From an uncultured virus (IMG/VR IMGVR_UViG_3300025012_000068) (Duplodnaviria; Heunggongvirae; Uroviricota; Caudoviricetes), in the IMG/VR virus record IMGVR_UViG_3300025012_000068, positions 1-64,000 of that record: a stretch of 64,000 nucleotides of DNA. The stretch is one strand, 5' to 3'. The translations under genes were made by a program, and so were the position numbers. The stretch's first letter is position 1. Every line of letters starts with the position of its first letter. This document shows positions 6,091-34,637 of the stretch, one piece after another. The notes under the pieces are model-generated. The model saw nothing but the letters and a program-made list of their open reading frames with translations, was not told where the DNA came from and ran no database searches.

Positions 6091-6906
6091 TTAAATTGGT
6101 AATTTAATCTTATTTAAGATATTAGTTGATATGTGAGTATAAATTTCTGTAGTTTTTATTGATGAATGCCCTGCTATTTTTTGAATTATTCGTATGTCCG
6201 TTCCATTTTCTAAAAGATTTGTAAAGCATGAATGCCTCAATGTATGAAAAGTTGAATTTTTATTAATTTTAAAATTATTCCAAATTTGCCTACAACTTGA
6301 AGTAGAATATTTAACTCCATGAGCATAGCTTTCAAAAAGATAAAACTCAGGTTTGTATTTAAGATAGTATTTTCTTAAAAGCCCTAAAATATGATTTGAA
6401 AGAGGTACAACTCTATCTTTTCTTCCTTTTCCTGATTTAACTAAAATTAGCATTCTTTTTGAATCTATGTCTTCTAATTTAAGATTACATATTTCTGAAA
6501 CTCTTAATCCACTACTATATGCTAGCGATATGATAGCTTTATGTTTTAAGTTTTGTATTTTGGAAATTGATTGCACAATTTCATCATGCGAAATTACTTG
6601 TGGTAATTTCTTTTCTCTTCGTGGTCTTTTAATTTTAATTAAATGTTTTATTGATTTTTTTAAAATTAATAAATAGAATATTTTTAAAGAATTAAGTATT
6701 TGATTTTGCTGTGATACTGACGAATAATTAAAATTAAATAAATAGTTGTTTAACTGTTCTAAATTTAAATGGTATGGATCATTGTTTATTTCTATTAAAA
6801 AGTTATAAAGACAACTTTTATAATTATTAATAGTACATGTTGAATAATTTTTTATTATCAGAGTTTTTTCAAATTTTCTGATAATACAATCAAATTTAGT
6901 ATTCAT
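6091..6906 (-). CDS. tyrosine recombinase/integrase of the cassette array (likely start MNTKF at 6906)
   Basis: SGLRVSE, KSGKGRKDR, HTLRH, GHSS, TEIYTH catalytic set; SAM-like N-terminal domain. Confidence 0.9.
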   Translation of the reverse strand: MNTKFDCIIRKFEKTLIIKNYSTCTINNYKSCLYNFLIEINNDPYHLNLEQLNNYLFNFNYSSVSQQNQILNSLKIFYLLILKKSIKHLIKIKRPRREKKLPQVISHDEIVQSISKIQNLKHKAIISLAYSSGLRVSEICNLKLEDIDSKRMLILVKSGKGRKDRVVPLSNHILGLLRKYYLKYKPEFYLFESYAHGVKYSTSSCRQIWNNFKINKNSTFHTLRHSCFTNLLENGTDIRIIQKIAGHSSIKTTEIYTHISTNILNKIKLPI

Positions 6907-6909: not shown

Positions 6910-6949
6910 CAATATATTAAGCGTACTTGTATATATATAATAGTTAGCG
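6910..6949 (+). other. attI-like primary recombination site (core GTTAGCG at 6943, no hairpin)
   Basis: ATATATATAATA-GTTAGCGGTAATG immediately upstream of the integrase start; first cassette body starts here and ends in the complementary CACTACCGCTAAC (to 7150). Confidence 0.6.
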
Positions 6950-6955: not shown

Positions 6956-7210
6956 TTAAGACCACTCGAAACCTGACCATCCTTTATTCCACTTTGACAG
7001 CTTGAAAGAAAATGAAAATCCGCAATGGTTGTCTTCAAGTGCTTTTGTTGCTAAAAATGCGTGTGTATCTACTATCTCACATTGTTTATTTTCTTTCAAT
7101 GCTTGCAGTAATTCGTGTCCATTCTTCGGACGAAAAACACTACCGCTAACACTCGATATAAGTAATGGCGGGTTAGTGCTTTCTTGATGTTCTGTGCTTT
7201 CTATTGTCAT
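6956..7210 (-). CDS. cassette ORF (MTIEST...; start inside hairpin loop)
   Basis: ATG at 7210 within site 7144-7273; reads through GTT AGC GGT AGT (VSGS). Confidence 0.65.
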   Translation of the reverse strand: MTIESTEHQESTNPPLLISSVSGSVFRPKNGHELLQALKENKQCEIVDTHAFLATKALEDNHCGFSFSFKLSKWNKGWSGFEWS

Positions 7211-7273
7211 TTGTGCTAAATTTAAAGTGAGTAGTTCTAAATCCGCCACTACTCATAGCGGATGCCGTTATAT
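7144..7273 (+). repeat. attC-like hairpin site
   Basis: CGCTAAC..TATAAGTAATGGCGG / CCGCCACTACTCATA..GTTATAT. Confidence 0.85.
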
Positions 7274-7489
7274 GCAATGTTTTCTTTCCTCGCTCAACTC
7301 ACTATTACATTTATCACATATTCGTTCTCTAACATCATAAGTTAGATTTTCTTCATTCTCTTGAATTGTGAGTTCCGACCCACAAACACAACACATAACA
7401 TCAGATAAACTCAATTTTTTATCGAGCAATCCAACTTTATTTAAGTGCTGATTTAACCAATTGTTTTCGTAATATATTTTCTTTTCCAT
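7268..7489 (-). CDS. cassette ORF, small Zn-ribbon protein
   Basis: CxxC...CxxC; stop TAA lies in the TAAC core; start in hairpin. Confidence 0.65.
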   Translation of the reverse strand: MEKKIYYENNWLNQHLNKVGLLDKKLSLSDVMCCVCGSELTIQENEENLTYDVRERICDKCNSELSEERKHCI

Positions 7490-7522
7490 AATAAAAACTG
7501 AGTTTATCTGTAGCCGTTATAT
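7393..7522 (+). repeat. attC-like hairpin site
   Basis: ACATAAC-AT-CAGATAAACTCAATTTTTTAT / ATAAAAACTGAGTTTATCTG-TAGCC-GTTATAT. Confidence 0.85.
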
Positions 7523-7678
7523 TTAATACAAAAATAAGAAATATTTTTGATATATTAACACGTTTAGTACTTTATTTTTGAACTAAATATAATAAGTAAA
7601 TATAATTAATTGATAATCAATCTACTAAATTATAAATGACAGTACTCTTCAACTAATCATATTTACAGAACGTTAGCA
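7516..7678 (-). promoter_or_regulatory. ORF-less putative promoter cassette, copy 1 (complete, with own hairpin 7587-7678)
   Basis: Repeat found 5 times; minus-strand TATTTTTG (TAnnTTTG) at 7529-7536; arms GTAAATATAATTAATTGA / TCAACTAATCATATTTAC-AGAAC-GTT. Confidence 0.7.
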
Positions 7679-7687: not shown

Positions 7688-7906
7688 TTATTTAGATAAG
7701 TCGTTATCATCAAATAACAATTTCAACTTCTCTGCTAACTTTTCCATAAATTCTTCTTTACCATCAATCCAACTTTCAAGTCCTAATACAGTTTCAGCAC
7801 AAGAAGTTGAAATTTCTTCGCTGAATGTTTCTTCTACTAATTTTAAAATATCTTTCTTAGTCATAATTTTACGATTTGCTAACAGCGTATATGTGAAATA
7901 CGCCAT
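7688..7906 (-). CDS. cassette ORF, hypothetical (start 7906 or 7864)
   Basis: Body bounded by GTTAGCAAA (7672) and TTTGCTAAC (7883). Confidence 0.6.
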   Translation of the reverse strand: MAYFTYTLLANRKIMTKKDILKLVEETFSEEISTSCAETVLGLESWIDGKEEFMEKLAEKLKLLFDDNDLSK

Positions 7907-7970
7907 TAAGGTTTGTATTTAATTTCAAGTTTCTGCTATGCGTACTTCACATATACGCAAAACGTTAGGC
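7877..7970 (+). repeat. attC-like hairpin site
   Basis: TGCTAAC-A-GCGTATATGTGAAATACGC / GCGTACTTCACATATACGC-AAAAC-GTTAGGC. Confidence 0.85.
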
Positions 7971-7976: not shown

Positions 7977-8321
7977 CTACTGCCACACACCATTGACGCG
8001 AACAACCTGTGAACGCTCAATCCAAATAGATTGCTCTGTATCTTCATCCTTAAATTCTTCCTTCCAATGAATACGCCCAATTAATCGCTTTTCGGTTTTC
8101 TTTGGTCGCCTTGAAATTGTTATTTCTTCTTCCGTTTCCTCAAATCTTTGGTGGTCATCACACAATAGAAGTTCCTCTTTTTTCAAGGCAACTATTTCTG
8201 TTTTGATTTGAGCGATTAATTCCCATTTTTCGGCAATCTCCTGATTGATGTCCGCCCTACGCCTAACAGTACCTTGAACGCTATTGGCGGTTTCGTTGTT
8301 AATTGAAGTTTTCGTTTCCAT
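7977..8321 (-). CDS. cassette ORF, hypothetical
   Basis: Body bounded by GTTAGGCGTAAGG / CCCTACGCCTAAC; start in loop. Confidence 0.65.
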   Translation of the reverse strand: METKTSINNETANSVQGTVRRRADINQEIAEKWELIAQIKTEIVALKKEELLLCDDHQRFEETEEEITISRRPKKTEKRLIGRIHWKEEFKDEDTEQSIWIERSQVVRVNGVWQ

Positions 8322-8392
8322 ATTTACTTTTGTTGTTTAATTAAAATTCGTGTTTCAAATCGCCAACAGCGTCAAGCTGCGGCACGTTATAA
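8261..8392 (+). repeat. attC-like hairpin site
   Basis: GCCTAAC..CTTGAACGCTATTGGCG / CGCCAACAGCGTCAAG..GTTATAA. Confidence 0.8.
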
Positions 8393-8401: not shown

Positions 8402-8659
8402 CTACTCATTTCTTTCTATTAATTCTTTTATATTTTCAATAACATAATAAAAGTTTTCACAAGTATCTTTTAAATCATCCCAATCTGTTCTACCCTCTAC
8501 AAAATCCTCTCTATTATTGAAAATATAAAAATACCCTCTATCATCTAAACTTTTTATCAATTTTAGAATTTCTTCCTTAGTTTTACTACTTATAACATCA
8601 GATATATTCAATTCTGATGTCTTATCTTCAAATGTTTTTATATGTTTTCTATCTTTCAT
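8402..8659 (-). CDS. cassette ORF, hypothetical
   Basis: Body bounded by GTTATAAGTAATAAAA / TTTTACTACTTATAAC; start in loop. Confidence 0.65.
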   Translation of the reverse strand: MKDRKHIKTFEDKTSELNISDVISSKTKEEILKLIKSLDDRGYFYIFNNREDFVEGRTDWDDLKDTCENFYYVIENIKELIERNE

Positions 8660-8722
8660 CTTATTAATTTATTTTAGTTATATATTAAAATCAGAACTGA
8701 ATATATCTGATGAACGTTAGCA
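8590..8722 (+). repeat. attC-like hairpin site
   Basis: TTATAAC-ATCAGATATATTCAATTCTGAT / ATCAGAACTGAATATATCTGAT-GAAC-GTTAGCA. Confidence 0.85.
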
Positions 8723-8731
8723 GCAATAAGC

Positions 8732-8902
8732 CTATATCCGTTTAATAACATCACACATCTTTGAAAATTTATCTGCATCTATAATCACCTTCTTCTTTTT
8801 TGAGGTCGGCTTACTGCTTATAACAACATGTTTATTCAATTGCTGGCTTTCGTAGTCTGCAATTAACTTTTTCGCTTTTAAGTATTGTTTTTCTGTTATC
8901 AT
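8732..8902 (-). CDS. cassette ORF, 56 aa (MITEKQYLKAKKLIADYESQQLNKHVVISS...), below ORF-track cutoff
   Basis: Translated by hand; N-terminus paralogous to 21133..21375. Confidence 0.6.
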   Translation of the reverse strand: MITEKQYLKAKKLIADYESQQLNKHVVISSKPTSKKKKVIIDADKFSKMCDVIKRI

Positions 8903-8952
8903 AATTTTTCGTTTTTAAAGTCGCAACTAAATAAACCTGCAAACTGTTATAT
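8818..8952 (+). repeat. attC-like hairpin site
   Basis: TTATAAC-A-ACATGTTTATTCAATTGC / GCAACTAAATAAACCTGC-AAACT-GTTATAT. Confidence 0.8.
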
Positions 8953-9060
8953 TTAATACAAAAATAAGAAATGTTTTTGATATATTAACATTTTTAGTAC
9001 TTTATTTTTGAACTAAATATAACAAGTAAATATAATTAATTGATAATCAATCTACTAAAT
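8946..9060 (-). promoter_or_regulatory. putative promoter cassette, copy 2 (right hairpin arm lost)
   Basis: Near-identical to 7516-7630; intact ATATAAC at 9017-9023. Confidence 0.7.
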
Positions 9061-9115
9061 GATAAATATAATACTCTTTGTGTATTATATATGGGTGAGG
9101 CTAAACTGAATAGTT

Positions 9116-9343
9116 TTATTGTGTTGCTTTACTAAATAAGTTTAGGTCTTTACTTTTCACTAATTCATTACACTCGCATTGACCCATTTGGAGTCCATTT
9201 CCACCATGTATCATTTCCACTTTATCGCCTCGCCTAACATATTGTTTTAGGTTTTTAAGCCAGTCAGTATCAGTGTAGCAGTGAGGTTCATGGCATGCTG
9301 CAAATATTTTATCACAACATGCATATTTAATAACTTGTATCAT
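9116..9343 (-). CDS. small Cys-rich hypothetical protein
   Basis: 75-aa ORF coupled to the upstream gene. Confidence 0.55.
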   Translation of the reverse strand: MIQVIKYACCDKIFAACHEPHCYTDTDWLKNLKQYVRRGDKVEMIHGGNGLQMGQCECNELVKSKDLNLFSKATQ

Positions 9344-9741
9344 GTTAGTTTTATTATTTTTTCTAATTTATATATATTGTCATTATATGAGAAGCATATA
9401 TAAACTGTTGAATTATTTACATTTGAACTTTTAATTTTTTCAAGGTCATTTTGTATTTGGTCATTTAAACAATTAAGATTTTTAATTCTTTTTACTTTTA
9501 CTTCTATTATATTGCCCCTATCTGTTAGTAAATCTGTATAAATGTCATTTGTAAATTTATAATTGAAATTTTCATATAACCATACTTCAGCCGTTTTACC
9601 TAATTTGACATTATTGGATATTATGTCATAACTTCTATGCCTTCTTGCAATACTAGAATTAAATATCCTATCAGCCTCTTCTTTTATTAATTTAGATAGT
9701 AAGGCTTTATCTTTAATATCTTCATATTTAAAACAAATCAT
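9340..9741 (-). CDS. putative PD-(D/E)XK nuclease-like protein
   Basis: GKTAE...TDL...IEVK pattern. Confidence 0.45.
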   Translation of the reverse strand: MICFKYEDIKDKALLSKLIKEEADRIFNSSIARRHRSYDIISNNVKLGKTAEVWLYENFNYKFTNDIYTDLLTDRGNIIEVKVKRIKNLNCLNDQIQNDLEKIKSSNVNNSTVYICFSYNDNIYKLEKIIKLT

Positions 9742-11431
9742 TAAAATACATTACATTTTTTTCTATTAATGGCATATCCATAGCTTCTAGAGCCCTATTC
9801 AATGGATTTAAAATAATAACATTAAATTGCTCATCATAATCTACGTGAGGCGCAAACTCAATTGGAAATTTTCCAGGTAAATAACTAAATGCATCTATCT
9901 TATACGTATCATCAGGCATACAATTATAAAATCTAACCTTATCTCCGGTTCTTACCTTTTTATATTTTTTGCGTATATTATCAGTTTGCTTATATAATAA
10001 ATGGTTATAATAACCAGCGGACCTTGGATAGATAGATGCGCCTTTTGCAAATACTAATTGATCGTCATCTTTAATGACATATTTTTTAAATGTTCGTAGA
10101 TTAAAATTCATACTAAACTCATCAGGGTGTAGCCCTTTAAATTCTTCTTTATATTCTAATAATTTATTTAATATCTCATCCATATTTAAAGAGTCGCCAT
10201 TCTTTAAAATAATCTTAATTAATTCTGTACCTTTAGCCCGTGCCCATTTTGGTAAAGACGCTTTTACTAAATCAAACCCCTTAGGTAATAAATACGACTC
10301 AGGTAATAGTCTATCCTCAAATGCAACATCTAATATATAATTTTTTTTTGCAATAAAAATACCACTATTACTAATATGCTCTAATTTAAAATCATGGGTG
10401 TTTATTGCATTATACGACTTAGCGTATTCTTCAAATTTATTATTTAAATAAGAATTCATCCTATATTTAATTATATCAGCTGCAAATAATATAGGACTTA
10501 TTTTTAATGTATCAAACCCCTCTATCGACTTTATAATATAATCATAATTAATATAACCAGAATTGTGAACTAAAATATCATTAGCAATAAACGTATGAGT
10601 TGCATCATCCATTTCAATATCATATACCCACTCATCTTCGAATTCACCTATACATTTACATTCAGATATATCTTCAAATTGATAATTAAAATTTAAGTCT
10701 AATTCGTTAATTGTTAAAATTTTATCAATTTTTGTATTAATTTCAGATGGCTTAATTTTTAATTGTATTCCATCGTGAAATACAATTAGTGAATGATCTT
10801 CTGTGCATATTATTGATTTTCCAGACTTAGACCTCAATAACCATTTTTTCTTTTTTACTTTATGCCTAATCAGTTTTTTAGGTTTTGCATAATATAAGGT
10901 ATTATTAAAATTTAATATTCTAAAATTAGAAATACCAATTATCTCATTCCCATTTTTTAATTTAATAATACTATTAATTTTATAACATAATTTAAAAAAA
11001 TCTTTAATTTTAATTTTTCCTATATTTTTTACATAAATTATTGAATTTTCGTTGACGCTATCCGTGTCAACATATATTATAGGTGGCCCTTTTGTTATTT
11101 TTATAGGATTAATTTTTAAATGATCTATACTTAATTTTTTATGAAGCTCTTTATCAAGATGCCACTCATTAATAAAATAATGTTCTATTACCTTATCCGT
11201 ATACTTAATAATATCTTGACCTTGCAAAGTTATTGACGCCGCTATGTCTAAATTGAAAAATGCGAAGGAATTTTGACCTGATGAACCATAATAGCTATTT
11301 AATATAATCTTAAATGCACTATCTTGCAGTTTGAGTTTATTAATTAATGCTTTAAGTTCGTCTTTAGTTAAAGTATTAATATAATCTTGTCTAGTATTAT
11401 GATCTTTAAGTAAGTTTAAATCTATTGCCAT
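9728..11431 (-). CDS. gp43: family-B DNA polymerase, C-terminal half (motifs B and C, thumb), intein-containing
   Basis: KIILNSYYG (motif B), YVDTD|S (motif C), KKNY; no exonuclease domain or motif A. Confidence 0.9.
   Translation of the reverse strand: MAIDLNLLKDHNTRQDYINTLTKDELKALINKLKLQDSAFKIILNSYYGSSGQNSFAFFNLDIAASITLQGQDIIKYTDKVIEHYFINEWHLDKELHKKLSIDHLKINPIKITKGPPIIYVDTDSVNENSIIYVKNIGKIKIKDFFKLCYKINSIIKLKNGNEIIGISNFRILNFNNTLYYAKPKKLIRHKVKKKKWLLRSKSGKSIICTEDHSLIVFHDGIQLKIKPSEINTKIDKILTINELDLNFNYQFEDISECKCIGEFEDEWVYDIEMDDATHTFIANDILVHNSGYINYDYIIKSIEGFDTLKISPILFAADIIKYRMNSYLNNKFEEYAKSYNAINTHDFKLEHISNSGIFIAKKNYILDVAFEDRLLPESYLLPKGFDLVKASLPKWARAKGTELIKIILKNGDSLNMDEILNKLLEYKEEFKGLHPDEFSMNFNLRTFKKYVIKDDDQLVFAKGASIYPRSAGYYNHLLYKQTDNIRKKYKKVRTGDKVRFYNCMPDDTYKIDAFSYLPGKFPIEFAPHVDYDEQFNVIILNPLNRALEAMDMPLIEKNVMYFNDLF
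10562..11059 (-). mobile_element. mini-intein (166 aa) in polymerase motif C
   Basis: Starts SVNENS after DTD; block B CTEDHS; ends VYDIEM...FIANDILVHN before Ser. Confidence 0.85.
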
Positions 11432-11496
11432 ATGACTTAAATTTTTGGTATTAGGTATCTAAAATAAAATAGGTTTACTATATTATAAAAGATAAT

Positions 11497-11964
11497 TTAC
11501 AAAAAGATAGTGTATAGTTTTATTAATAGGCCAATTAAGAATACTATGTATAATACCCATATTATATTTGTTTCATTCCATTTATATTTTATTTTTATTA
11601 TAAATGCGTAATGGTCTTTAGTACATATTTTTTCCGTTTTCATTTTAATTAGGTCTAGTATTCCGTATTCTAAAAAAACGTCATTATATTTTTTAAATTC
11701 ATGTTTAAGGTATTCTACCTCTAATCTATTTAATTCTTCTTTATTTTCTTCTTCTATAAGAAATTCAGGAGGTAAATTAATAACAGAGTATAGCCTATTA
11801 ATATAGTCTTTTCTAAGTTCTAGGGTATCCCCTATTATTTTATTATTTTTCATCTGTTTTAATGCAGATATATATTTTAAGTAAATATTTACTTCTAAAA
11901 CAATATTATAAAATTTGTTAATTATAAAGTTAGGATTTATAAAATTAGGTATAGAAAGTCTCAT
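11497..11964 (-). CDS. hypothetical protein with C-terminal transmembrane segment
   Basis: 155-aa ORF. Confidence 0.55.
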   Translation of the reverse strand: MRLSIPNFINPNFIINKFYNIVLEVNIYLKYISALKQMKNNKIIGDTLELRKDYINRLYSVINLPPEFLIEEENKEELNRLEVEYLKHEFKKYNDVFLEYGILDLIKMKTEKICTKDHYAFIIKIKYKWNETNIIWVLYIVFLIGLLIKLYTIFL

Positions 11965-11972
11965 AATTTATT

Positions 11973-12578
11973 TTATTTTAAAATTTCATTTGCTAGTTCT
12001 ACTATATGTTTTTTCTCTGATAATTTAGCTAAAACCTGTATTCGTGATTGACGAATTAAGGTTTTAATAGTATCAATATTTATATTATATTTAACCGATA
12101 TATCCTTATATTTCATTCTATTTATTTCCCTGTCAATAAGAACTTCCTTTTTTCTACCATTTAATTTAAGTATTTCTGAAACTACTGTATTATATAAAGT
12201 TTCGAAGTCTTTTTCTGAATTAAAGATTTCAAAGCTATTAAACTCTTTTTTAGAGCCGGTATCATGAAAAATAGTTAATGTGACTGTATTTTTTTTATAA
12301 TTTATAAATTGTAAGGCGTCATACCTAGCTATACTATATATCCATGTACTAAATCTCCAATTTTCATTATACATATCAATTTTTTGCCAAAGCTTAATCA
12401 TAACTTCTGATGAAATATCATTAGAGTCGTCATAGTCTTTCACTATTTTATATATATATAACTGAACTTGCGGTAATATTAAGTTATATAGTTTATTATA
12501 AACTAATTTAGATTTTGTTCTTTTAAATTCAATAGATAATTCTTGTATTAATTCATTTTTTTTTACAGGTAGTTTCAT
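11973..12578 (-). CDS. ECF-type RNA polymerase sigma factor
   Basis: Region 2 (KLWQKIDMY...FSTWIYSIARY) and region 4 (MKYKDIS...NIDTIKTLIRQSR). Confidence 0.85.
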   Translation of the reverse strand: MKLPVKKNELIQELSIEFKRTKSKLVYNKLYNLILPQVQLYIYKIVKDYDDSNDISSEVMIKLWQKIDMYNENWRFSTWIYSIARYDALQFINYKKNTVTLTIFHDTGSKKEFNSFEIFNSEKDFETLYNTVVSEILKLNGRKKEVLIDREINRMKYKDISVKYNINIDTIKTLIRQSRIQVLAKLSEKKHIVELANEILK

Positions 12579-12594
12579 ATAATGGTTTTTAAGA

Positions 12595-13373
12595 TTAAAT
12601 TAAATTTGTAGTGTTTAGCATTCCATCTAAATGTAATAATGATATTTTATTTTTTAATAACGTCTCACTTAAGTTTTTACTATTAATATATTTAAAAAAG
12701 TCGCAGTCTAAGGCTCTTCCAGTTTCTTGTAAATATTCAAGACTAGGTTGTGATTTAATAATAAACTCATAAGATTCTTTATCTAATTTATATCCTCTAT
12801 TCAAAAACTTAATTATTCTTTCAAAGTATATAAATCTATTATTTTTAATTTTTGCTAATTTAATTATTTTTTGTTGTAAATCATTAATTGAATTATCAAA
12901 GTAATATATATCATTTCCATCAAACCCAAACTGGCATATGGTAAAATCAAAATCATAAATACAAGACTCTATAGTGGGATAGTTTTGGCCTATCATTACT
13001 TGAATATGATTATCGTTATTGATAAAATCTAATTTATACACTCTTGGATCATTACGTAAATTAAGTAGAGGTTTATGGTTTTTAGTAGAGACTTCATCTT
13101 TAATATATTTAATAAGATTTCTTTCTTTTTTATTTTTAGAATGTTCTAAAGAAATCTCATAAGTATCTAGCAAATTATTGTTTATTATAAAGCGTATAGA
13201 GTCTTCTCTATTTTTTGAAAAAATATCTATATCATTATATTTAGTATTATCTAAAATATCTCTAATACACCCTCCTGCTATCCAATTATTTTCGTATTTA
13301 AATTTAGGTATTAAATTATGTATTAAATTACCATCTTTTTTTGCAGACAGTTAGTCTCAATATCAGTATCCAT
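12595..13373 (-). CDS. PolyA-polymerase/CCA-type nucleotidyltransferase-like protein; apparent 1-nt frameshift near the start
   Basis: In-frame upstream extension WIAGGCIRDIL...DIDIF and downstream FDFTICQ; ATG 13373 is out of frame across the T7 run at 13336-13342. Confidence 0.65.
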
Positions 13374-13419
13374 TAAAAAACGATTTAGTAAATAGTTTTT
13401 GTAAAAGTATAAAAATAAA

Positions 13420-14010
13420 TTAAATAAAAATATATTTTATTCCATTAATATTAAAATAACACTCTAAGTCTTCAGGTAAGTACTCGGTGCTATTTATCAG
13501 TTCTTTACCAATTTTTATAGATTTTTGATTTTTTCTCCATAGAAAAATACCATCTCTTTTTTTAGTAAACCCATATATAAATTTAGTTTGTTTATTTGAT
13601 TCTACTATAGATTTAATCATTCTTAAAAAATTAATATCTGACATTTCTTTAGGTTTCAATATAAAAATATTTTGTTCAAATTTAAGTTTTTGTCTATCTC
13701 CTATATTATCTTCAGCTCGCGTTACTCCTTCTTGTACTGCAAATTTAAAATTAAGTTTTAATAAATTTATAGAAAGTTCTTCTATTAATAATTTGTTATC
13801 AATTTCTTTATTTTTATTATTCCAAACTGTTATAATTGTAAACGGTATTTTTTCTTCTATTGCATTTTTAATTTCATAAAAACCAATAGGAGATAATGTG
13901 TTATTATTTCCATTAACTGCAGAACTAAATTTTTTGTCTTTACTATAAACTCGAGGTAGTGGAACATTTATAATATTATGGTAAGCTTCAAATAATTTAA
14001 CATATTCCAT
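13420..14010 (-). CDS. hypothetical protein (late-type, YVKLFE N-terminus)
   Basis: 196-aa ORF preceded by GAATAAATAA. Confidence 0.55.
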   Translation of the reverse strand: MEYVKLFEAYHNIINVPLPRVYSKDKKFSSAVNGNNNTLSPIGFYEIKNAIEEKIPFTIITVWNNKNKEIDNKLLIEELSINLLKLNFKFAVQEGVTRAEDNIGDRQKLKFEQNIFILKPKEMSDINFLRMIKSIVESNKQTKFIYGFTKKRDGIFLWRKNQKSIKIGKELINSTEYLPEDLECYFNINGIKYIFI

Positions 14011-14049
14011 GTTATTATTTATTCAATTTTTAAATTAATAGAATTTTAA

Positions 14050-14367
14050 TTATTCTAATTTATCAAGTTCTTCTTTCAATCTTTCAAGAAAAGACTCTTC
14101 TCCATCATCTCCAGATAATAACCAATCAATTCGGTGAGCGTATATTGCAGCAGTTCTTAGTATTTTTATAGCATCTTTCATTTTTTCTTGAATTTCAATA
14201 GGATAAGCTGCATAATATTTTTCATCAGGATATTTACTATAATACTCATCGGTATAATATAGCTCATCCTTTGGTTTTAAAGTACCCTGTTTATTAAGTT
14301 CATTTTCAATAGAATCTGCAATATTACTAACATGATATTGCTGGTAATCAAAGTGTCCGCCTGACAT
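14050..14367 (-). CDS. conserved phage hypothetical protein
   Basis: MSGGHFDY...RIDWLLSGDDGEESF. Confidence 0.6.
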   Translation of the reverse strand: MSGGHFDYQQYHVSNIADSIENELNKQGTLKPKDELYYTDEYYSKYPDEKYYAAYPIEIQEKMKDAIKILRTAAIYAHRIDWLLSGDDGEESFLERLKEELDKLE

Positions 14368-14405
14368 ATTTTAAAAAATTAGAATTTATAATAGTTTATT
14401 TAGAA

Positions 14406-14612
14406 TTATTGTTCTTGATTTAGTATTTTAGTTATTTTAGAATTAATATCCGACATTTTTTCAAAATATAGGCTTTCCTGTTTTTTAAGACTTATTTTTT
14501 CATTAGGGTCATCTGATAATAATCCCTTTATTTTAAATTCATTACTTTTAGCTCTATATTCATCTTGAGTAGAATATAAGTTTTTTATGTGTTCTAAGGT
14601 TTCAGTAGTCAT
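14406..14612 (-). CDS. hypothetical protein
   Basis: 68-aa co-oriented ORF. Confidence 0.45.
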   Translation of the reverse strand: MTTETLEHIKNLYSTQDEYRAKSNEFKIKGLLSDDPNEKISLKKQESLYFEKMSDINSKITKILNQEQ

Positions 14613-14623
14613 AATATATTTAT

Positions 14624-14860
14624 TTATAATGGATGGTAGTTTGTAATTTTGAATTTAATAAAATCTAGTTTTTTATCTGTACAGTTTTCGCAAAGGTGAG
14701 CGTTCCATTCTTTCAAATCTTTAGAACTTCCAAATCCCCAATTTGCACTTAATTTTAGATATTCAAATCCATACTCCGTATTACACATTTTACCACATGA
14801 GTCACACACTATATCTTTAAGTACGTCTACTTCTTTTAATTCTTTAGTTATTACTTTCAT
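14624..14860 (-). CDS. small Zn-binding hypothetical protein
   Basis: CDSC...WGFGS...LCENC. Confidence 0.55.
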   Translation of the reverse strand: MKVITKELKEVDVLKDIVCDSCGKMCNTEYGFEYLKLSANWGFGSSKDLKEWNAHLCENCTDKKLDFIKFKITNYHPL

Positions 14861-15494
14861 TATTAGTATGTATTTTTAATATTTCATTAATATTAAGCTT
14901 AGGTATACCTAATACTTTACTATTTTCACTTAAATTATATAAATTTACATTTTTTATTTTGAAAGCATTATATAAATTTATATAATCATTATTAATTTCA
15001 TTCAGTCTATTTGCTTTAATTAAATTATGTTCACCATCTTCTGCATAAAAATGATTTAATGTAAAATCTACTCCAATTAATGCGATTGTATGACACCCCA
15101 TTTTATATGCAATAATACATGCCATATATGGAGAGTTATTACTATAATCTATAATATTATTTTTATCATAAAGATTTTCTAATTTAGATTTTAATCCAAG
15201 TTTAAATAATACTTTTTTTCCAGATTCAATTTTCCAATCAACGATTTGTGTAAAAATATAGCTACTACTTTTTGTAATAAGCAAGTTTCTATTGTTAGTA
15301 AATCTATTAGGAGAATCTACAACCACCGTATAAGTAGGAGTAAATAATTTAGCAACATCATTTACTCCTATTGTAATTATATTCTCATTATTTAGTATAT
15401 CTACTCGGTCTTTAATAAGATTTAAAGACTGACCACACCCACAGATTATTGCAGTTTTATCAGTGTGTATATTAATAAATTTATTAAATTCCAT
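14844..15494 (-). CDS. DUF115/Maf-like putative glycosyltransferase-related protein
   Basis: IICGCGQSL, IGVN and LIGVDF motifs. Confidence 0.6.
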   Translation of the reverse strand: MEFNKFINIHTDKTAIICGCGQSLNLIKDRVDILNNENIITIGVNDVAKLFTPTYTVVVDSPNRFTNNRNLLITKSSSYIFTQIVDWKIESGKKVLFKLGLKSKLENLYDKNNIIDYSNNSPYMACIIAYKMGCHTIALIGVDFTLNHFYAEDGEHNLIKANRLNEINNDYINLYNAFKIKNVNLYNLSENSKVLGIPKLNINEILKIHTNNESNN

Positions 15495-15560
15495 ATACTA
15501 GACTCTATTATAACTAATTATTTTTAATGTATCAAAATAGTTTTTTACATTACGTTAAAT

Positions 15561-15632
15561 ATATAAGTTTTTGTTTACAAATCTTTATAATTTTTTCGTT
15601 CATACTATTGATTTTATTATAGTTTAAACATA
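15561..15632. repeat. about 70-bp repeat (second copy at 33191-33261), possible 5' remnant of an integrase gene
   Basis: Near-identical copies; minus strand encodes MNEKIIKICKQ; both abut the left end of an array. Confidence 0.6.
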
Positions 15633-15670
15633 CATGTATATATATATATATATAATATTTATGTGTAATA

Positions 15671-15967
15671 CTACTCATGTTCTCCGAAATATTCCTTTTC
15701 ATCAAAGTTTTCATCGTTATCAAAATCATAAACACACTTAAATTTTAAAACTCTACCTCTCCAAGATTGTTCTACCACTAATGTGATTTCACTAGTCGTT
15801 TGAGAATTAAAGTCAGTTAATTCCATCATTCCGTTTTCACGTTTATATTTCTCATATTCAACGTCATTACTACCACTTTTCCAAACATATTCATCAAACT
15901 TTTCTGATGAAATGTCTGGTAATTTATATTCATTTCCACTTTCTAATTTAATTTTTATTGTATCCAT
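15671..15967 (-). CDS. cassette ORF, hypothetical
   Basis: Body bounded by TTATGTGTAATAC / GTACTACACATAAC. Confidence 0.6.
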   Translation of the reverse strand: MDTIKIKLESGNEYKLPDISSEKFDEYVWKSGSNDVEYEKYKRENGMMELTDFNSQTTSEITLVVEQSWRGRVLKFKCVYDFDNDENFDEKEYFGEHE

Positions 15968-16000
15968 AAGTTTTAAAATTTAAGTTTAACACCGTACTAC

Positions 16001-16130
16001 ACATAACAAGGTGTATATGTAATGTGAGGTTCAGTGGTATATTCAACAATCCTACTTCTAATCATCATTTGTGGTTAATTCAAGTTTAGTGTTTCAAATC
16101 TCACATTACATATACACCCAACCGTTATGT
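16001..16130 (+). repeat. attC-like hairpin site
   Basis: ACATAAC-AA-GGTGTATATGTAATGTGAG / CTCACATTACATATACACC-CAACC-GTTATGT (19-bp perfect stem). Confidence 0.9.
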
Positions 16131-16165
16131 TTAATTGTTCGCTTCTCACAACTATACTTCGTTAA

Positions 16166-16456
16166 ACATAACAAAGTATAAATTCAATAAAAAATAATAG
16201 AATTTTGTTTGTTCTTCCAATTAGTAAAAGATTTTTGATCAACCTTACACTTTTTCAATTCTGTATTTATAAATGGATTTTCCAAGTTTGTAAGTAATTC
16301 ACATTCTATAATAAAAAAATCTTTTTCTACTTTAACGTTAAATCTACCAAATGGTTCTCCCATTAGTCTTGGTTCTTGTTCATAAACAAAATTCCAAAGT
16401 TTATCTTTATTCTTCATTTGTATTATTTTTACTAAATTTATACTCATCCATTAGCA
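16166..16456 (+). repeat. attC-like hairpin site with a very large, gene-containing loop; core ATT
   Basis: ACATAAC-AA-AGTATAAATTCAATAAAAAATAAT / ATTATTTTTACTAAATTTATACT-CATCC-ATTAGCA. Confidence 0.7.
16184..16417 (-). CDS. hypothetical protein encoded within the hairpin site
   Basis: MKNKDKLWNF...NSIIFY; start 16417 (alternative 16447). Confidence 0.55.
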   Translation of the reverse strand: MKNKDKLWNFVYEQEPRLMGEPFGRFNVKVEKDFFIIECELLTNLENPFINTELKKCKVDQKSFTNWKNKQNSIIFY

Positions 16457-16684
16457 GTAATTTAGTTTAGCCTTTAACCTATCAATTTCTTTATATGTTG
16501 CTTCTAACTCTTCTTTTAATTCCTTTTTATCGTTTTGTATAATTCGCAATAGTTCTAATGTATTCCCGTGTGATTCAACAGCAACATTATATTGAAACAA
16601 AGGAATATGAGTTAAACTACCGCTAACAACATGTATATCCAATTGCTGCTTTTGTTCTTCTAATTTACTTTTATCTGTTTTCAT
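16451..16684 (-). CDS. cassette ORF, coiled-coil hypothetical
   Basis: QQLDIHVVSGS leader from the hairpin. Confidence 0.6.
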   Translation of the reverse strand: MKTDKSKLEEQKQQLDIHVVSGSLTHIPLFQYNVAVESHGNTLELLRIIQNDKKELKEELEATYKEIDRLKAKLNYC

Positions 16685-16750
16685 ACTTTATCGCTTTTAA
16701 TTAATTTTATATGTTATTTACGCAACTATATATACCTGTGGACGTTATAC
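16621..16750 (+). repeat. attC-like hairpin site
   Basis: CGCTAAC-A-ACATGTATATCCAATTGC / GCAACTATATATACCTGT-GGAC-GTTATAC. Confidence 0.8.
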
Positions 16751-17056
16751 GCAATATTTTTTACCCACCACAACTAAAGGTTTCAATTTAATTGTTGGTA
16801 ATTTATTACCTCTATTAAATCTTTCATCATATTCAAATAAATTAAAATGGCTTTCGTTTAATGTTATTAATTTTAATGGTACTTTTGGATATTCACCTTC
16901 CTTTTCAATTACTTCACCCATTAACATCGCCATTAATACAACTTCACCAATTTGTTTTTCTTCACCATTAAAATATGTTTTAACTTGTAATTTTTCTAAA
17001 ACATCTTTTGTTAATGGTTGTGTTCCGTTTAATTGTTTTTCAAATAATTCTTTCAT
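16745..17056 (-). CDS. cassette ORF, hypothetical
   Basis: Stop in TAAC core; body bounded by GTTATACGCAATATTTT / AAAATACTGTGTATAAC. Confidence 0.6.
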   Translation of the reverse strand: MKELFEKQLNGTQPLTKDVLEKLQVKTYFNGEEKQIGEVVLMAMLMGEVIEKEGEYPKVPLKLITLNESHFNLFEYDERFNRGNKLPTIKLKPLVVVGKKYCV

Positions 17057-17125
17057 AATTTTTATTTTTTTTGTAAATATGCTAATTTATTTTTAATTTG
17101 TCAAATCCCACCAACAAAATACTGT

Positions 17126-17256
17126 GTATAACAACATGTTTAGTTAATTGTTTTTCCCCTGCTTTTAAATAAGTTTTTAATCCAATTTATCATCCATGTT
17201 TCAATTTAATTTTGTAATATTTTCACGCAACTAACCAAAATGGGGGTACGTTTGTA
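17126..17256 (+). repeat. attC-like hairpin site (degenerate)
   Basis: GTATAAC..CATGTTTAGTTAATTG / CAACTAACCAAAATG..GTT at 17250. Confidence 0.6.
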
Positions 17257-17472
17257 GCAGTATTTACAATTTCCCTTGTGAGAAAACATATACCCTCTTT
17301 GATAGCCATTATACTTTACAATATACTCACAGCTATCTACAACAATTGTTCTATATTCTATTTCTCCATTCACTGAATTTTCACCGTTTCCACAACCGCA
17401 AAAAATAACAGCTACTAATAAGGCATAAAAGAAATGCCGAGCTCCTACTAAAATTGATGTTTTGTTTTTCAT
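17206..17472 (-). CDS. cassette ORF, putative lipoprotein
   Basis: Hydrophobic stretch followed by FCGC; VDSCEY...HKGNCKYC. Confidence 0.6.
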   Translation of the reverse strand: MKNKTSILVGARHFFYALLVAVIFCGCGNGENSVNGEIEYRTIVVDSCEYIVKYNGYQRGYMFSHKGNCKYCYKRTPILVSCVKILQN

Positions 17473-17541
17473 ATTTACTTTTGTTTTAAATTGATAATTT
17501 GTACTTCTAATTTCGGCATTTCTTTTATGCCCATGTTATAT
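17413..17541 (+). repeat. attC-like hairpin site (AAT instead of AAC)
   Basis: GGCATAAAAGAAATGCCGA / TCGGCATTTCTTTTATGCC perfect 19-bp stem, then GTTATAT. Confidence 0.8.
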
Positions 17542-17680
17542 TTAATACAAAAATAAGAAATATTTTTGATATATTAAATTTTTTAGGTACTTTATTTTTG
17601 AACTAAATATATCAATTAAATATAATTAATTGATAATTAATATACTAAACGATAAACGGTCATAATCTTCAACTAATTAC
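17535..17680 (-). promoter_or_regulatory. putative promoter cassette, copy 3
   Basis: Similar to 7516-7660, including partial right arm CTTCAACTAAT. Confidence 0.65.
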
Positions 17681-17908
17681 GCGTACAACTTCTGAATCAT
17701 TATTTTTACCGGAGAAAACAAAATTACAATACTCTTTAAAAGTAAGAATGTTGTTTTTTCTTAATCTGGTTTGCAAACGTACCTGTAACATGCTTTTTTA
17801 GATACAGTATATTTATACCATAATGTGAACGTATAAACTCACTAAGTTTTACAAAGTCAGCATCACTTAATTCTTTGCTAGGTGTATCAATTTTCAGAAT
17901 AACCCCTA
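17675..17908 (-). pseudogene. frameshifted fragment resembling the CheR methyltransferase N-terminal domain
   Basis: ELSDADFVKLSEFIRSHYGIN / SMLQVRLQTRLRKNNILTFKEYCNFVFS...EVVR in two frames. Confidence 0.65.
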
Positions 17909-17911
17909 GTT

Positions 17912-18742
17912 TTAAAATAATGAATTAAAAATACTTGGTTCAAATACGTGAGACCATTCATTAAATTTCTTAAGTATTGAATTAAATTTATATTCTTCAA
18001 ATAAAGTTTTTATATTTTCTTTATTAAAAGTATATTCAGTATTCTCAATTTCTAATCCTGAAAAATCTAATAAGGTAAAATCAATTAGTGTAATATTTTG
18101 GATATATTGCTTTAGTTGGGCGTCACTCGCTAGGCTTTTCCATTTATCTATGCCATTTGCTGCTTTAAACGCTTTAGACTCACTTAATATTTTAATTATA
18201 TTGTCACTAGGATCTCCTGTTAAAGCCTTATAATCTGTAAATTTACCCGTTAATTTATCAGGAAGTTCTCTAAAACAATTATTAATCGGGTCATATATTT
18301 TAATATTATTAAATTGTTGTTTTAATTGAATAAAATCTTTATCATTACTTATAATAAAAATTTCATGGTATTTTGAATTTAGATTTTTACATAAGTAGTA
18401 TATAATATCGTCAGCTTCTCGATCTTTACAATATGCAGTTTTAATAGGAAAATTAGTAAGAATAGACTTCATTTTATTCATCTGTTGATAATATATATTA
18501 TCTAATTTCTGTCTATTTCCTTTATATTGAGAATATTCAGACTTTTTTTGTATAGGTGATCCATCTAATACAAAAAATAAATCTCGGCCTTCATTATCTT
18601 TATATAATTTATGGAATATATTTACAAATAAATATACTGCGGCATTACTATTAGGATCATTCTTAACACTATTCCATGCAAAAGGGATACGTAATGCCCG
18701 GTGCATTAAATTTGAAGCATCAATAAATACTGCAGATTTCAT
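17912..18742 (-). CDS. rnh: 5'-3' exonuclease / T4-type RNase H
   Basis: IDASN, YKGNR, EADD, SNDKDF and GDPSDNI motifs. Confidence 0.85.
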   Translation of the reverse strand: MKSAVFIDASNLMHRALRIPFAWNSVKNDPNSNAAVYLFVNIFHKLYKDNEGRDLFFVLDGSPIQKKSEYSQYKGNRQKLDNIYYQQMNKMKSILTNFPIKTAYCKDREADDIIYYLCKNLNSKYHEIFIISNDKDFIQLKQQFNNIKIYDPINNCFRELPDKLTGKFTDYKALTGDPSDNIIKILSESKAFKAANGIDKWKSLASDAQLKQYIQNITLIDFTLLDFSGLEIENTEYTFNKENIKTLFEEYKFNSILKKFNEWSHVFEPSIFNSLF

Positions 18743-18743
18743 T

Positions 18744-19100
18744 TTAAAATTCTAAGGCTTTAAATTTTTCCTTTTTTAATTCTATGGAAATAATTTCAAA
18801 AAGTATTTCTAAAGTATCTCTATTAGGAATAGATTCTATAGATGACCCTATTATATTTGATTTAATACTAATGCTATCATAATCATGTGATGTAATTGTA
18901 AAACCTGTATTATCTAGATTAGATAATGTAGTATTTAAAAATTCTATTATGATTTTATAGTCATCTAGTTTTTTAATATTAAATTTACCATATTTATTAT
19001 TAAAAAGATAAGATTGTTCTTGTTTTGACTTTAATAATTGGATAGTATTAACCCAAATATTGTCTTTTAGCTCTGCTTCTTTTTTATGTTCTATAAACAT
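18744..19100 (-). CDS. hypothetical protein
   Basis: Coupled ORF. Confidence 0.5.
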   Translation of the reverse strand: MFIEHKKEAELKDNIWVNTIQLLKSKQEQSYLFNNKYGKFNIKKLDDYKIIIEFLNTTLSNLDNTGFTITSHDYDSISIKSNIIGSSIESIPNRDTLEILFEIISIELKKEKFKALEF

Positions 19101-19103
19101 TGT

Positions 19104-19760
19104 TTAAAAAAAATCGTTAAAATTATTATAATTATTTAAAATATTATATTCTTCGTTTAATTCTAAAATTATTAGTTCTTTATATTGATAATCTAAAAAA
19201 TCAAATAATTTTTTATAATTGATATTAGTATATTTACTTACTGTATCAAATATACTAATAAATGTATAATCATTGCATATTGGTTTAACTTCAGCAAGAA
19301 TCATTGAAAAAATAGTATTGATTTCTTGTTTATTAAATTTTCTTTTTTCTAATGTTTTATTTAAATTTAATAAGGTTCTAATATCTTCATTATTTTCTAT
19401 ATATGACTCTATATGTTTTTGCGAGATGTTATTAATAATAAATTTAGCAGGTTCATAATTTTCCATATATAAATTTGAGTAAGACGCGTCAATTTGAAGT
19501 GACTTACCGTATTCATATTCACATGGATCTTTTAAATTATTTCCGTCATTATATGACGTATTATAAATTTTATTATGCTTTGCTTTTTCTAAATGTATTT
19601 CCCAATTTAAATCAGATACCTCTTCAATAGAGGTATGTCTAGAATAGTCTATATCAGTTTCGGGCAAATTATGAATATCGTTGGATGGATCAGTTTCAGC
19701 ATTTCTGTTATTTAATTCATCAGTTTCTTTATTACTATTATAATCGAATTGATTTACCAT
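19104..19760 (-). CDS. hypothetical protein
   Basis: 218-aa ORF. Confidence 0.55.
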   Translation of the reverse strand: MVNQFDYNSNKETDELNNRNAETDPSNDIHNLPETDIDYSRHTSIEEVSDLNWEIHLEKAKHNKIYNTSYNDGNNLKDPCEYEYGKSLQIDASYSNLYMENYEPAKFIINNISQKHIESYIENNEDIRTLLNLNKTLEKRKFNKQEINTIFSMILAEVKPICNDYTFISIFDTVSKYTNINYKKLFDFLDYQYKELIILELNEEYNILNNYNNFNDFF

Positions 19761-19836
19761 TTATAATTAAAGTTATTTTTAAGCTAAAATAACAAAGGTT
19801 AATTTAACATTTACTCAAAAATTTTATTAAAAACTG

Positions 19837-20211
19837 TTAAAATTGTTTTAAATAGGAATCTAATTCTTTAAAATTATTAATTGCTTTATCGTCTATGAAA
19901 ATATCATAATTAGGTTTTGTTAAATCTATTTTATGATATTTAACTCCCCATCTATTAAACTGTTTTATAGTTTCAACAGTCCAATCTATTTTAGAAGATG
20001 CGCCTCGAGCTGAATAAAATGTTATAGTATTTCCAGCATCATATAACTCATTTACTATTTCTATATTTTCTATAATAGGCTCGCTCTTAGAATAATCTAA
20101 TCCATATTTATCAATATCTAAAATTGCAATTGTTTTATCAATATCAATAAAAATATTTAATCCAGACGGATATTTTTTATTTTCTTTAATATAATTTATA
20201 AAATCTTTCAT
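19837..20211 (-). CDS. HAD-family phosphatase (capsule-biosynthesis phosphatase-like)
   Basis: DIDKT, YSARG and KP.YDIFIDDK motifs. Confidence 0.75.
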   Translation of the reverse strand: MKDFINYIKENKKYPSGLNIFIDIDKTIAILDIDKYGLDYSKSEPIIENIEIVNELYDAGNTITFYSARGASSKIDWTVETIKQFNRWGVKYHKIDLTKPNYDIFIDDKAINNFKELDSYLKQF

Positions 20212-20252
20212 ACCCTGTCCAATTTAATCAATCTCCTTCTACTGTATAAATG

Positions 20253-20573
20253 CTAACTGATGTTTTTACCTATCATATTAATTCTATAATAATCATTTAA
20301 ATTTAAAAATATATTAAATAGGCTGTCTATAATTACTATTTTTTCATCTTTGCTAATGTATTGTTCTAATTCATAAAAATCAGTAGTCTCTTGGCCAATG
20401 CCTTTAGTATTTAACTCTTTTTTAAATTTAATTAATTCATCTTCTACAGATTCTCCAGATTTAGATTTTCCGTATTTTAATAGCCAGCCTATAATTTCAG
20501 TTAAATCTTCATTATAAATATTATTGGCGGAGTCTTTTATAAAATCTTCAAAGATTTTAACATATTTTTTCAT
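20253..20573 (-). CDS. hypothetical protein (YVKIFEDF N-terminus)
   Basis: 106-aa ORF with AATAAATAA upstream. Confidence 0.5.
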   Translation of the reverse strand: MKKYVKIFEDFIKDSANNIYNEDLTEIIGWLLKYGKSKSGESVEDELIKFKKELNTKGIGQETTDFYELEQYISKDEKIVIIDSLFNIFLNLNDYYRINMIGKNIS

Positions 20574-20694
20574 TAAATTAATCCCTTTCTTTTTATTTAT
20601 TTAGATTACTATTTTTATTTTGCTTAACTTTTTAGGATTCTTAAATGTTAAATCATATTATCTTTTATAATTATTTGTGATGGCAATAAACGCT

Positions 20695-20825
20695 CCATAA
20701 CATACAATAACAGCAAGTGGGGGCTTGTGTCACATTGAAGCTATCTTGTGTCTAATGAAGCTTATCGTCAAGTGAAAGTACGGTGCATTTAATCCCCACC
20801 TGACTGTTAGTGTCATCAGTTAGTC
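20695..20825 (+). repeat. attC-like hairpin site
   Basis: CCATAAC-AT-ACAATAACAGCAAGTGGGG / CCCCACCTGACTGTTAGTGT-CATCA-GTTAGTC. Confidence 0.8.
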
Positions 20826-21107
20826 ACAATTGTCTGGGAACATATAGTTACCAACGTATTTTAGCTGTTTCAACTTTACACAGTCATCGCATATAGCCAA
20901 AACATACATATCTCCATCAAGTAAACTGCCATACCCAGCACTTATCTTTTCAACTATTCCACCATTCCACATACCTTCCCAATCCTTATCTTTTGGCAGT
21001 CCATCAAGTTTCTTTATTTCTTTTCCGCAACAAATACAATTGTGGCTAACCTCACTTATATTCAATTGCGTTTTTTGTGGTTCATTCAAGTTTTCGTTTT
21101 CTAACAT
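20820..21107 (-). CDS. cassette ORF, Zn-binding hypothetical (start MLENENL)
   Basis: Body bounded by GTTAGTCACAATTGT / ACAATTGTGGCTAAC; CICC...GYGS..D...ICDDC. Confidence 0.6.
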   Translation of the reverse strand: MLENENLNEPQKTQLNISEVSHNCICCGKEIKKLDGLPKDKDWEGMWNGGIVEKISAGYGSLLDGDMYVLAICDDCVKLKQLKYVGNYMFPDNCD

Positions 21108-21132
21108 AATTCTGTTTTTATTTTTTAAGTAT

Positions 21133-21375
21133 TTAATTATTAAACATTTGACAAATAAAAGCCGATTGCATAACACAATTCTTGCATTTAAATATCTTAT
21201 GAGTAACACCCATTCTTCCACTCCCATCCTTATTACTGGTGTTTTTATAAAATATTTCTATATCTTGGTTGTCGCAGCACTTCATATGGCTTATACTAGC
21301 AGGTTTATTCAATTGCTCACATTCATATGCTTCAACAATCATTTTTGCTTTTAAGTATTCTTTTTCTGTTATCAT
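21133..21375 (-). CDS. cassette-derived ORF sharing the MITEKxYLKAK leader
   Basis: N-terminus similar to 8732..8902, unrelated body. Confidence 0.55.
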   Translation of the reverse strand: MITEKEYLKAKMIVEAYECEQLNKPASISHMKCCDNQDIEIFYKNTSNKDGSGRMGVTHKIFKCKNCVMQSAFICQMFNN

Positions 21376-21737
21376 TTTTTATAGTTTTAAATCACCCCTA
21401 TATATAACGTAGTAAAGAAAATATCTATGATAATACTCTGAAATGACATTTTTGACACCATTAAGTTTCCGTTGCAACTTGCTATTTATAATCAATAGTT
21501 GGTATTTTTATCTTTTTTATAAAAACCATGTGTATATTGAAGTAATATACAGCGATAATTCCGCACAGGTTTTCAAATTAAGGTTAAATTCTAGTCTTTT
21601 TAAGTTTAACACAGCACTAGAATATATTATTAAAACTAAAAGTATAGTCCATAAAATAGACCAAACTTTTAAAAAGAAAATTATTAGTTCTATAATCATT
21701 TGAATTTAACTATTGGTATACGTATAAGCATTAAAAT

Positions 21738-34430: not shown

Positions 34431-34529
34431 ACCTAACATCAGGTAGGCGATATTGCCGTTATGAGCCTGAGTGCTTTGATTTAAACTTTGTGGTAAGCCT
34501 CACTATCGCCTACCTGCAAAACGTTATAT
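34431..34529 (+). repeat. attC-like hairpin site
   Basis: ACCTAAC-AT-CAGGTAGGCGATATTG / CACTATCGCCTACCTG-CAAAAC-GTTATAT. Confidence 0.85.
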
Positions 34530-34637
34530 TCAATACAAAAATAAGAAATAGTTTTGATATATTAAAATATTTAGTACTTTATTTTTGAACTAAATATAAC
34601 AAGTAAATATAATTAATTGATAATCAATCTACTAAAT
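34523..34637 (-). promoter_or_regulatory. putative promoter cassette, copy 4
   Basis: Near-identical to 8946-9060. Confidence 0.7.

Follow-up and report, generated by a model that had tools for sequence, protein, structure and literature searches.

Introduction

The closest described systems to the one analyzed here, an array of hairpin-bearing gene cassettes beside a tyrosine recombinase gene in the uncultured virus record IMGVR_UViG_3300025012_000068 (positions 1 to 64,000, the whole stretch analyzed, hereafter the window), are the integrons, especially chromosomal integrons with homogeneous attC sites. Papers cited by PMC number were consulted in part, and statements about them refer to the parts consulted. 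Like the array in the window, integrons have a tyrosine recombinase beside an attI-like GTT site and an array with one AAC/GTT-bounded hairpin per cassette; their routine crossover lies at the bottom-strand AAC, one hairpin family occurs on unrelated genes, and pairing is extended past the core by the cassette's own ends, by 9 to 11 nt in PMC2727003. Clusters of attC-like sites (CALINs) have been described in virulent phage genomes, including that of a Polaribacter phage, and the top strands of such phage attC sites recombine with IntI1 at lower rates than the bottom strands (Qi et al. 2023, PMC9892861). Top-strand recombination by IntI maps to the R'' box (Bouvier 2009, PMC2727003), and IntI1 recombines delivered top strands, in about 251 of 607 recombinants (Escudero 2016, PMC4792948). 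It is known from laboratory strand-delivery assays with IntI1 and is treated as disfavoured; as a natural source of chimeric cassettes it is not described in the consulted parts of these two papers. The origin of cassettes is a subject without a reliable model (PMC4792948).

The phage array differs from integrons in that its recombinase lacks the I2 insertion and scores below the NCBIfam cut-off, its open reading frames (ORFs) lie on the recombining strand and start within the hairpin loop, and its hairpins and gene bodies have been re-paired at the R''-side core, a side reaction seemingly turned into protein chimeras. It also differs from the phage CALINs of PMC9892861 in having recombinases of its own, and the consulted parts of that paper contain neither loop-encoded leaders nor hairpin-body re-pairing. 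A literature search, chiefly outside subscription journals, found integrons and CALINs in phages and no account of either feature in the parts consulted. Here, we describe comparisons which give good support to repeated re-pairing of hairpins and bodies at the gene-strand GTT core (about -2 to +3) across related phages, and we weigh how such joints may be made.

Results

Hairpins that encode gene starts

The attC-like hairpins of the window are bounded by TAAC and GTTA, are mostly 124 to 129 nt long, and start at 7147, 7396, 7880 (88 nt), 8264, 8593, 8821, 16004, 17416, and 20698. On the gene (minus) strand, the frame opened by a loop ATG continues across the 3' arm and the GTT and enters the body, and the hairpin encodes a leader of about 26 residues. 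The cassette order on that strand is TAAC, 5' arm, loop with start codon and leader, 3' arm, GTT (Val), body, stop, and TAAC. In the array at 6.9 to 9.0 kb, every body starts and ends with its own inverted repeat. Genes are named below by the position of their start codon (8902 for ORF 8732-8902), and the following elements carry most of the comparisons.

7147..7270, no strand assigned: attC-like hairpin, leader of ORF 6956-7210
7396..7519, no strand assigned: attC-like hairpin, leader of ORF 7268-7489 (folding z -3.4)
7880..7967, no strand assigned: short 88-nt hairpin with no start codon in the loop (z -3.9)
8264..8389, no strand assigned: hairpin with the METKTSI leader of ORF 7977-8321, core 8265-8267 read as Val
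8593..8719, no strand assigned: hairpin with the leader of ORF 8402-8659 (z -3.9)
8716..8949, minus strand: intact mobile cassette, hairpin 8821-8949 plus body, ORF 8732-8902 (MITEKQYL..., 56 residues)
16004..16127, no strand assigned: hairpin with an 86%-identical twin heading another body at 179599-179722 of a longer record, G001

A hairpin census gave 143 distinct hairpin-body records out of 219 sequences. Read-through starts were found in 71 of the 105 long hairpins, compared with 4 of the 38 short ones; in the 71, the GTT was read as Val in 56, the Leu frame was used in 15, and the third frame in none. Nineteen hairpins with the leader type of 8902 (MITEK) had two-sided changes at 10 of 17 stem pairs, indicating covariation, and it is this family covariation that supports hairpin 8821-8949, which single-sequence folding did not single out (z -0.5). 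Loop codons outside the search pattern showed 36% synonymous single-base differences versus 16% expected (26 sequences, pairs non-independent), a mild sign that loop-encoded leaders are translated. Rfam returned one chance match (E 0.74), and on the RNA side no holder of the sequence was listed. Like attC sites, the hairpins are imperfect inverted repeats with AAC and GTT at their borders, and it is their structure, not their sequence, that is conserved. Integron cassette ORFs lie on the top strand, between the sites, with a promoter near attI; here, in contrast, the ORFs are on the opposite strand and start in the hairpin.

One hairpin family on many bodies

A 29-nt MITEK leader pattern recovered 71 loci (16 viral, 55 metagenomic), 50 of them distinct. 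An in-frame GTT(A/G) followed the ATG by 75 to 81 nt in 41 and was absent from 9 (two truncated, the relic at 21375 described below, and six others); two of the 41 lacked flanks and were left out, leaving 39 MITEK sequences with 15, 18, or 21 body clusters, depending on threshold. With the leader family gathered and the end of similarity plotted, as the first-pass annotation had proposed, a sharp fall was seen right after the GTT codon. Bodies were unrelated in 719 of the 741 pairs, and in these the mean identity was 1.00 at -1, 0.85 at +3, 0.45 at +4, and 0.29 at +5, the value of 1.00 at the GTT being a result of selection. Small peaks of identity up to +11 came from shared terminal-repeat classes. 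In line with this, hairpins at least 85% alike with unrelated bodies shared an identical run from the core G of only 3 to 6 nt in 33 of 36 pairs.

Positions +4 to +9 matched the body's own far end in 18 to 28 of 29 cases, compared with 9 to 15 of 29 for the end before the hairpin, and after-core bases paired with the body's own far end at 8.0 of 11 positions versus 4.2 for other bodies (n = 33). Unrelated bodies were present within starred clades of the MITEK hairpin tree, and one phage carries the same hairpin (86%) on two bodies, at 16004 and at G001 179599. An unspecified process that attached a family hairpin to each new body once, with no later exchange at the GTT core, would also account for the sharp joint between one hairpin and its many bodies and for the two bodies that carry the same hairpin in one phage; the homogeneity of attC sites within taxa has been tied to cassette genesis (PMC8352920).

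One body behind different hairpins

The converse arrangement was also found. In protein P0006, the 8902 body (25 of 26 residues identical) stands behind an unrelated 49-residue leader, which forms a family of its own with Val at the joint in 24 of 32 members and 15 body clusters. At the DNA level, 7 loci (6 distinct) carry one gene headed by hairpins of four types: L203 and L210 have body identity of 0.93 and hairpin identity of 0.60, L204 and L214 have 0.92 and 0.49, and L201 and L202 have 0.78 and 0.91, against a shuffled null of 0.40 to 0.49. Because the search pattern consisted of the first 17 nt after the core of this gene, the position of the joint is resolved only to about 20 nt. Two lipoprotein cassettes, L134 and L142 (body, 0.88; hairpin, 0.69), are a weaker case, and no body more than 90% alike behind different hairpins was found among the first 85 hairpin-body records, a set picked by leader.

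Single attachment would require that P0006, L201 to L214, and L134 versus L142 arose by repeated creation with the same gene and the same terminal repeat, and we regard it as unlikely. Far more improbable is the view that no exchange took place and that arms drifted fast by compensatory change while bodies diverged past recognition. Arms do vary under shared loops, with the same loop and differing arms in 31 pairs; however, the bodies are unlike in length and content, similarity at the core drops in a step and not along a slope, and hairpins 91% alike over bodies 78% alike yet 49 to 60% alike over bodies 92 to 93% alike largely refute it by this uncoupling. Collectively, the sharp fall after the GTT and the presence of one body behind several hairpins argue for re-pairing at this core, and at the level of the family they uphold the proposal of the first-pass annotation that bodies and hairpins are exchanged at the AAC-side core (GTT on the gene strand). 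Of the two pairs in the window that prompted the proposal, the first is a weak example of it, and the second does not support it.

Two related leader pairs in the window

These pairs, 8902/21375 and 8321/17472, involve three further elements.

17206..17538, minus strand: immobilised lipoprotein cassette (MKNKTSI..., ORF 17206-17472) with hairpin 17416-17538 (z -6.4) and core ATT at 17417-17419
21133..21390, minus strand: decayed MITEK cassette (ORF 21133-21375) that retains the loop and 3' arm but not the 5' arm, with AGT in place of the core GTT at 21295-21297
21158..21174, minus strand: start of a second body, fused directly to the 21375 ORF at GTT 21172-21174 in place of the natural C terminus

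The leaders of 8902 and 21375 are indeed alike up to the core and unrelated afterwards. Positions 8816-8918 and 21289-21391 are 78.6% identical over 103 nt (BLASTN E 7e-20, against the 73.9-kb parent record), and the two are in register from the ATG, with 6 to 10 matches per 10-nt bin up to +89 and 2 to 5 thereafter; similarity ends about 9 nt past the core, which in 8902 is GTT 8822-8824 (Val27). The bodies are unrelated, as the body homologs of 21375 (P0013, P0015-P0017) and of 8902 do not overlap. A recent swap within this genome was not borne out. The 21375 region has no fold (-5.1 kcal/mol, z +0.6), its leader identity to 8902 (77%) is about the family median (0.75 to 0.78), and in the hairpin tree it is a long end branch, with 8902 pairing instead with L059 (95/91). 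It is a decayed relic and not the sister of 8902, and the pair consists of a live and a dead cassette of one hairpin family.

The 21375 body has four homologs, with other leaders or none, which differ in their ends after CKNC; a search with the whole ORF recovered only itself. In 11 of 17 other viral matches (10 distinct), the 17-mer at 21158-21174 comes after a hairpin arm. The junction at 21172-21174 would be the product either of GTT-side joining at a secondary site or of a deletion by microhomology. The collapsed stretch at 21050-21390 resembles fused class 1 integron cassettes, in which partial loss of attC joins neighbours (PMC8876359). In those, the site is deleted, whereas intact phage hairpins change partners and supply the start codon.

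The loops of the second pair are related, as had been stated: 8301-8360 and 17452-17511 match with 80% identity across 61 nt (E 1e-8), in a stretch that starts 30 nt ahead of the ATG and ends 20 nt past it. Exchange at the core does not follow for this pair, as the likeness is confined to the loop; the 3' arms match at 1 to 5 of 10 positions per bin, similarity ends about 33 nt before the core, and the cores are in different frames (54 versus 53 nt from the ATG) with differing arms. A loop of the METKTSI/MKNKTSI type occurs in 13 of 143 hairpins, with several arm types. The hairpin of L134 is 91% identical to 17416-17538 and has an intact GTT, the ATT at the 17472 core being a synonymous change. 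For 19 lipoprotein hairpins and bodies, the support of the trees (1 and 2 starred branches of 16) was too weak for incongruence to be judged, and the L132.2 row in them was rejected as a false match. The 8321 body has one relative (L117, 42%), with its own start codon after the hairpin and no shared leader; this body family thus exists with and without a loop leader. Cores were lost by point change (17417-17419, 21295-21297) in cassettes distant from the recombinase, and core loss suggests domestication of cassette genes by the phage.

The routine mobile unit

The 246-kb record G001 carries identical DNA around the 8902 locus (L001 identical) and has three recombinase-array loci (77341, 161196, and 233723), with the 8902 cassette in all three arrays. 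Between the two AAC cores, any two of the three copies differ at two positions at most, and beyond these cores their sequences are unrelated, which argues that a hairpin and its own body travel together; one copy occupies the attI-like site belonging to the second recombinase. A search with a DNA pattern taken from the 8902 body recovered no copies beyond 4 known ones. Among same-body pairs from 99 long hairpins, the upstream neighbour differed in 10 of 10 and the hairpin was kept in 8 of 10. In integrons, whole cassettes are mobilised by crossover at G|TT of R', and the three copies, bounded at the gene-strand AAC, agree with this. By sequence comparison, what is routinely exchanged is a hairpin together with the body that it heads. 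The routine exchange point is this gene-strand AAC and not the core of the proposal (GTT on the gene strand), and the gene strand behaves like an attC bottom strand.

The recombinase and attI-like site

6091..6906, minus strand: tyrosine recombinase, 271 residues (Pfam Phage_integrase, E 3e-38, plus Phage_int_SAM_4)
6943..6948, plus strand: attI-like core (GTT), 37 nt before the recombinase start codon, without a hairpin, terminating the array

An integron has an attI with a GTT core beside its integrase gene, and such a site is present here; G001 arrays terminate at a similar site before two other recombinase copies, of which the second is intact and 52% identical and the third is broken by stops. 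Against the NCBIfam integron integrase model TIGR02249, the recombinase scored 170.7 bits in two stretches, below the cut-off of 265. Its residues 179-204 span VchIntI4 (2a3v) 179-250, about 45 residues fewer, and it is IntI-like without the IntI-specific I2 insertion in the catalytic domain; in IntI, the I2 domain holds extrahelical bases (PMC4792948). By the integrase test, the system is a variant of the integron design and not a member of the integrons. The array at 6.9 to 9.0 kb adjoins the recombinase gene, and the clusters at 16.0 to 17.6 kb and 20.7 to 21.4 kb, 9 to 14 kb away, are decayed.

Discussion

How the GTT-side joints may be made

Our explanation has three steps, and as a whole it seems to us slightly more probable than its negation. 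First, as the comparisons show, a hairpin with its own body moves as the routine unit, exchanged at the gene-strand AAC. Second, and likewise shown by comparison, hairpins and bodies have been re-paired repeatedly over evolutionary time at the GTT core; leaders have thus become common to unrelated proteins, and bodies have changed leaders. Third, the recombinase, acting on the opposite-strand hairpin with an AA|C cut, would make the GTT-side joints. After a single opposite-strand excision between neighbouring hairpins, the array would retain hairpin 1 joined to body 2, and the circle set free would carry hairpin 2 joined to body 1. Each event would give two chimeric genes, in frame if both cores are in the Val frame. 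The 8902 and 21375 ORFs would be two members of one hairpin family made that way long ago, 21375 having since decayed.

For the third step, occasional opposite-strand recombination by the short I2-less enzyme, we consider the chances evenly balanced. It is favoured by the absence of I2, the similar folding of both strands (within 0.7 kcal/mol in 7 of 8 intact hairpins examined), the precedent of IntI1 on top strands, and the predominance of the Val frame. In R''-box recombination of attC, the crossover is at the top-strand AAC, the same position as we infer for the phage (PMC2727003, PMC4792948). An I2-less recombinase may select strands less strictly. A more far-reaching version, in which the enzyme uses both hairpin strands, leader hairpins and bodies are separately shuffled modules, and excision permutes cassettes circularly, is put forward only tentatively.

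Several observations weigh against recombinase-made joints or limit the case for re-pairing. The contigs of four runs contained no GTT-core joint, although contigs drop rare variants; the joints listed in them were at repeats or of unknown content. All 31 neighbouring hairpin pairs have the same orientation, indicating that mixed-strand reactions are rare or purged, and the arms are clearly asymmetric, with spacers differing by 3 to 4 nt, which implies that strand choice exists. Rates cannot be read from samples chosen by leader or core-side patterns, and P0006 is a protein only, a single sequence on two short contigs.

Other points lend themselves to homologous or single-strand-annealing recombination in the 3' arm and short after-core tracts, with the site-specific enzyme limited to the routine core. 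In same-body cases, the identical stretch after the core is 17 to 29 bases, a length sufficient for exchange by homology, and such tracts are shared by unrelated or related bodies; 20 to 30 identical bases precede the core in 6 of 36 pairs. L051 has mismatched arms of two subtypes, a sign of crossing inside loops, and 5' arms are replaced in L119, L122, and L145. The junctions at 21172-21174 are collapsed, and G001 encodes a RecA/UvsX-family protein, although G000, the parent record of the window, gave no Rad51/RecA match. However, the 3 to 6 nt shared after the core G in nearly all close-hairpin pairs is short for this process, and arms usually change together and stay paired, as the two-sided stem changes show, which argues that whole hairpins move. 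Re-pairing by homology therefore seems to us rather unlikely, and opposite-strand recombination is retained as the proposed source of the joints.

Genomic setting and other cassettes

The window is taken from a 73.9-kb record (G000; G+C of about 25%) that encodes a T4-like portal, and the phage is a T4-like jumbo phage carrying integron-like cassette arrays. The window contains TAnnTTTG motifs, which we take to be the Bacteroidota promoter (-7) element, and the MITEK leader had three matches in genome contigs titled Flavobacterium or Sediminibacterium; together these point to a Bacteroidota host. No GenBank phage matched 8700-8960. The G001 patchwork is partly not collinear with the window (25,501 of 45,327 compared bases differ), and hairpins were used only from directly retrieved loci.

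8946..9023, minus strand: body of an ORF-less promoter cassette (D1 repeat), with outward TAnnTTTG at 8966 (minus) and 9003 (plus)

The D1 repeat, a cassette without an ORF, has an 86-nt hairpin of its own and TAnnTTTG motifs facing outward at both ends. Copies lie at 7516-7675, 8946-9067, 17535-17660, 34523-34650, and 37609, and at G001 159791-159950; about 16 full or partial copies occur in the window and G001, often at the head of an array, and the repeat is read as a mobile promoter. Gene-less promoter cassettes are listed for Vibrionaceae in the literature consulted. In L038 (G001 158020-158410), the hairpin arms are about 300 nt apart with a whole ORF inside the loop, followed by a body of about 47 nt; from this cassette, loop and body look interchangeable as cargo space.

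Outside the cassettes, 9728-11431 is a DNA polymerase-like ORF with an intein-like insert, as judged from its translation. Tandem 63-nt units at 57990-58562 code for leucine-rich-repeat-like proteins, with many copies across G001, and two adjacent ORFs at 147-2385 share a 248-nt repeat (84%) and are likely paralogous homing-endonuclease-like genes.

Implications

Since the hairpin encodes a readable peptide tag, protein sequences preserve a record of every joint between hairpin and body, and metagenomes allow such joints to be counted. Should the GTT joints be the work of the recombinase, accessory proteins of the phage would gain or lose signal-like leaders (for example, that of the lipoprotein at 17472) by a defined reaction, and a small enzyme with two oligonucleotide hairpins would be enough to test a route of cassette genesis. 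If both strands are in fact used, the enzyme would provide a natural means of creating new cassettes and of shuffling N-terminal domains, and the occurrence of one attC family on unrelated genes would have a first concrete model. Re-joining at the GTT core across related phages thus offers a testable route to new mobile genes.

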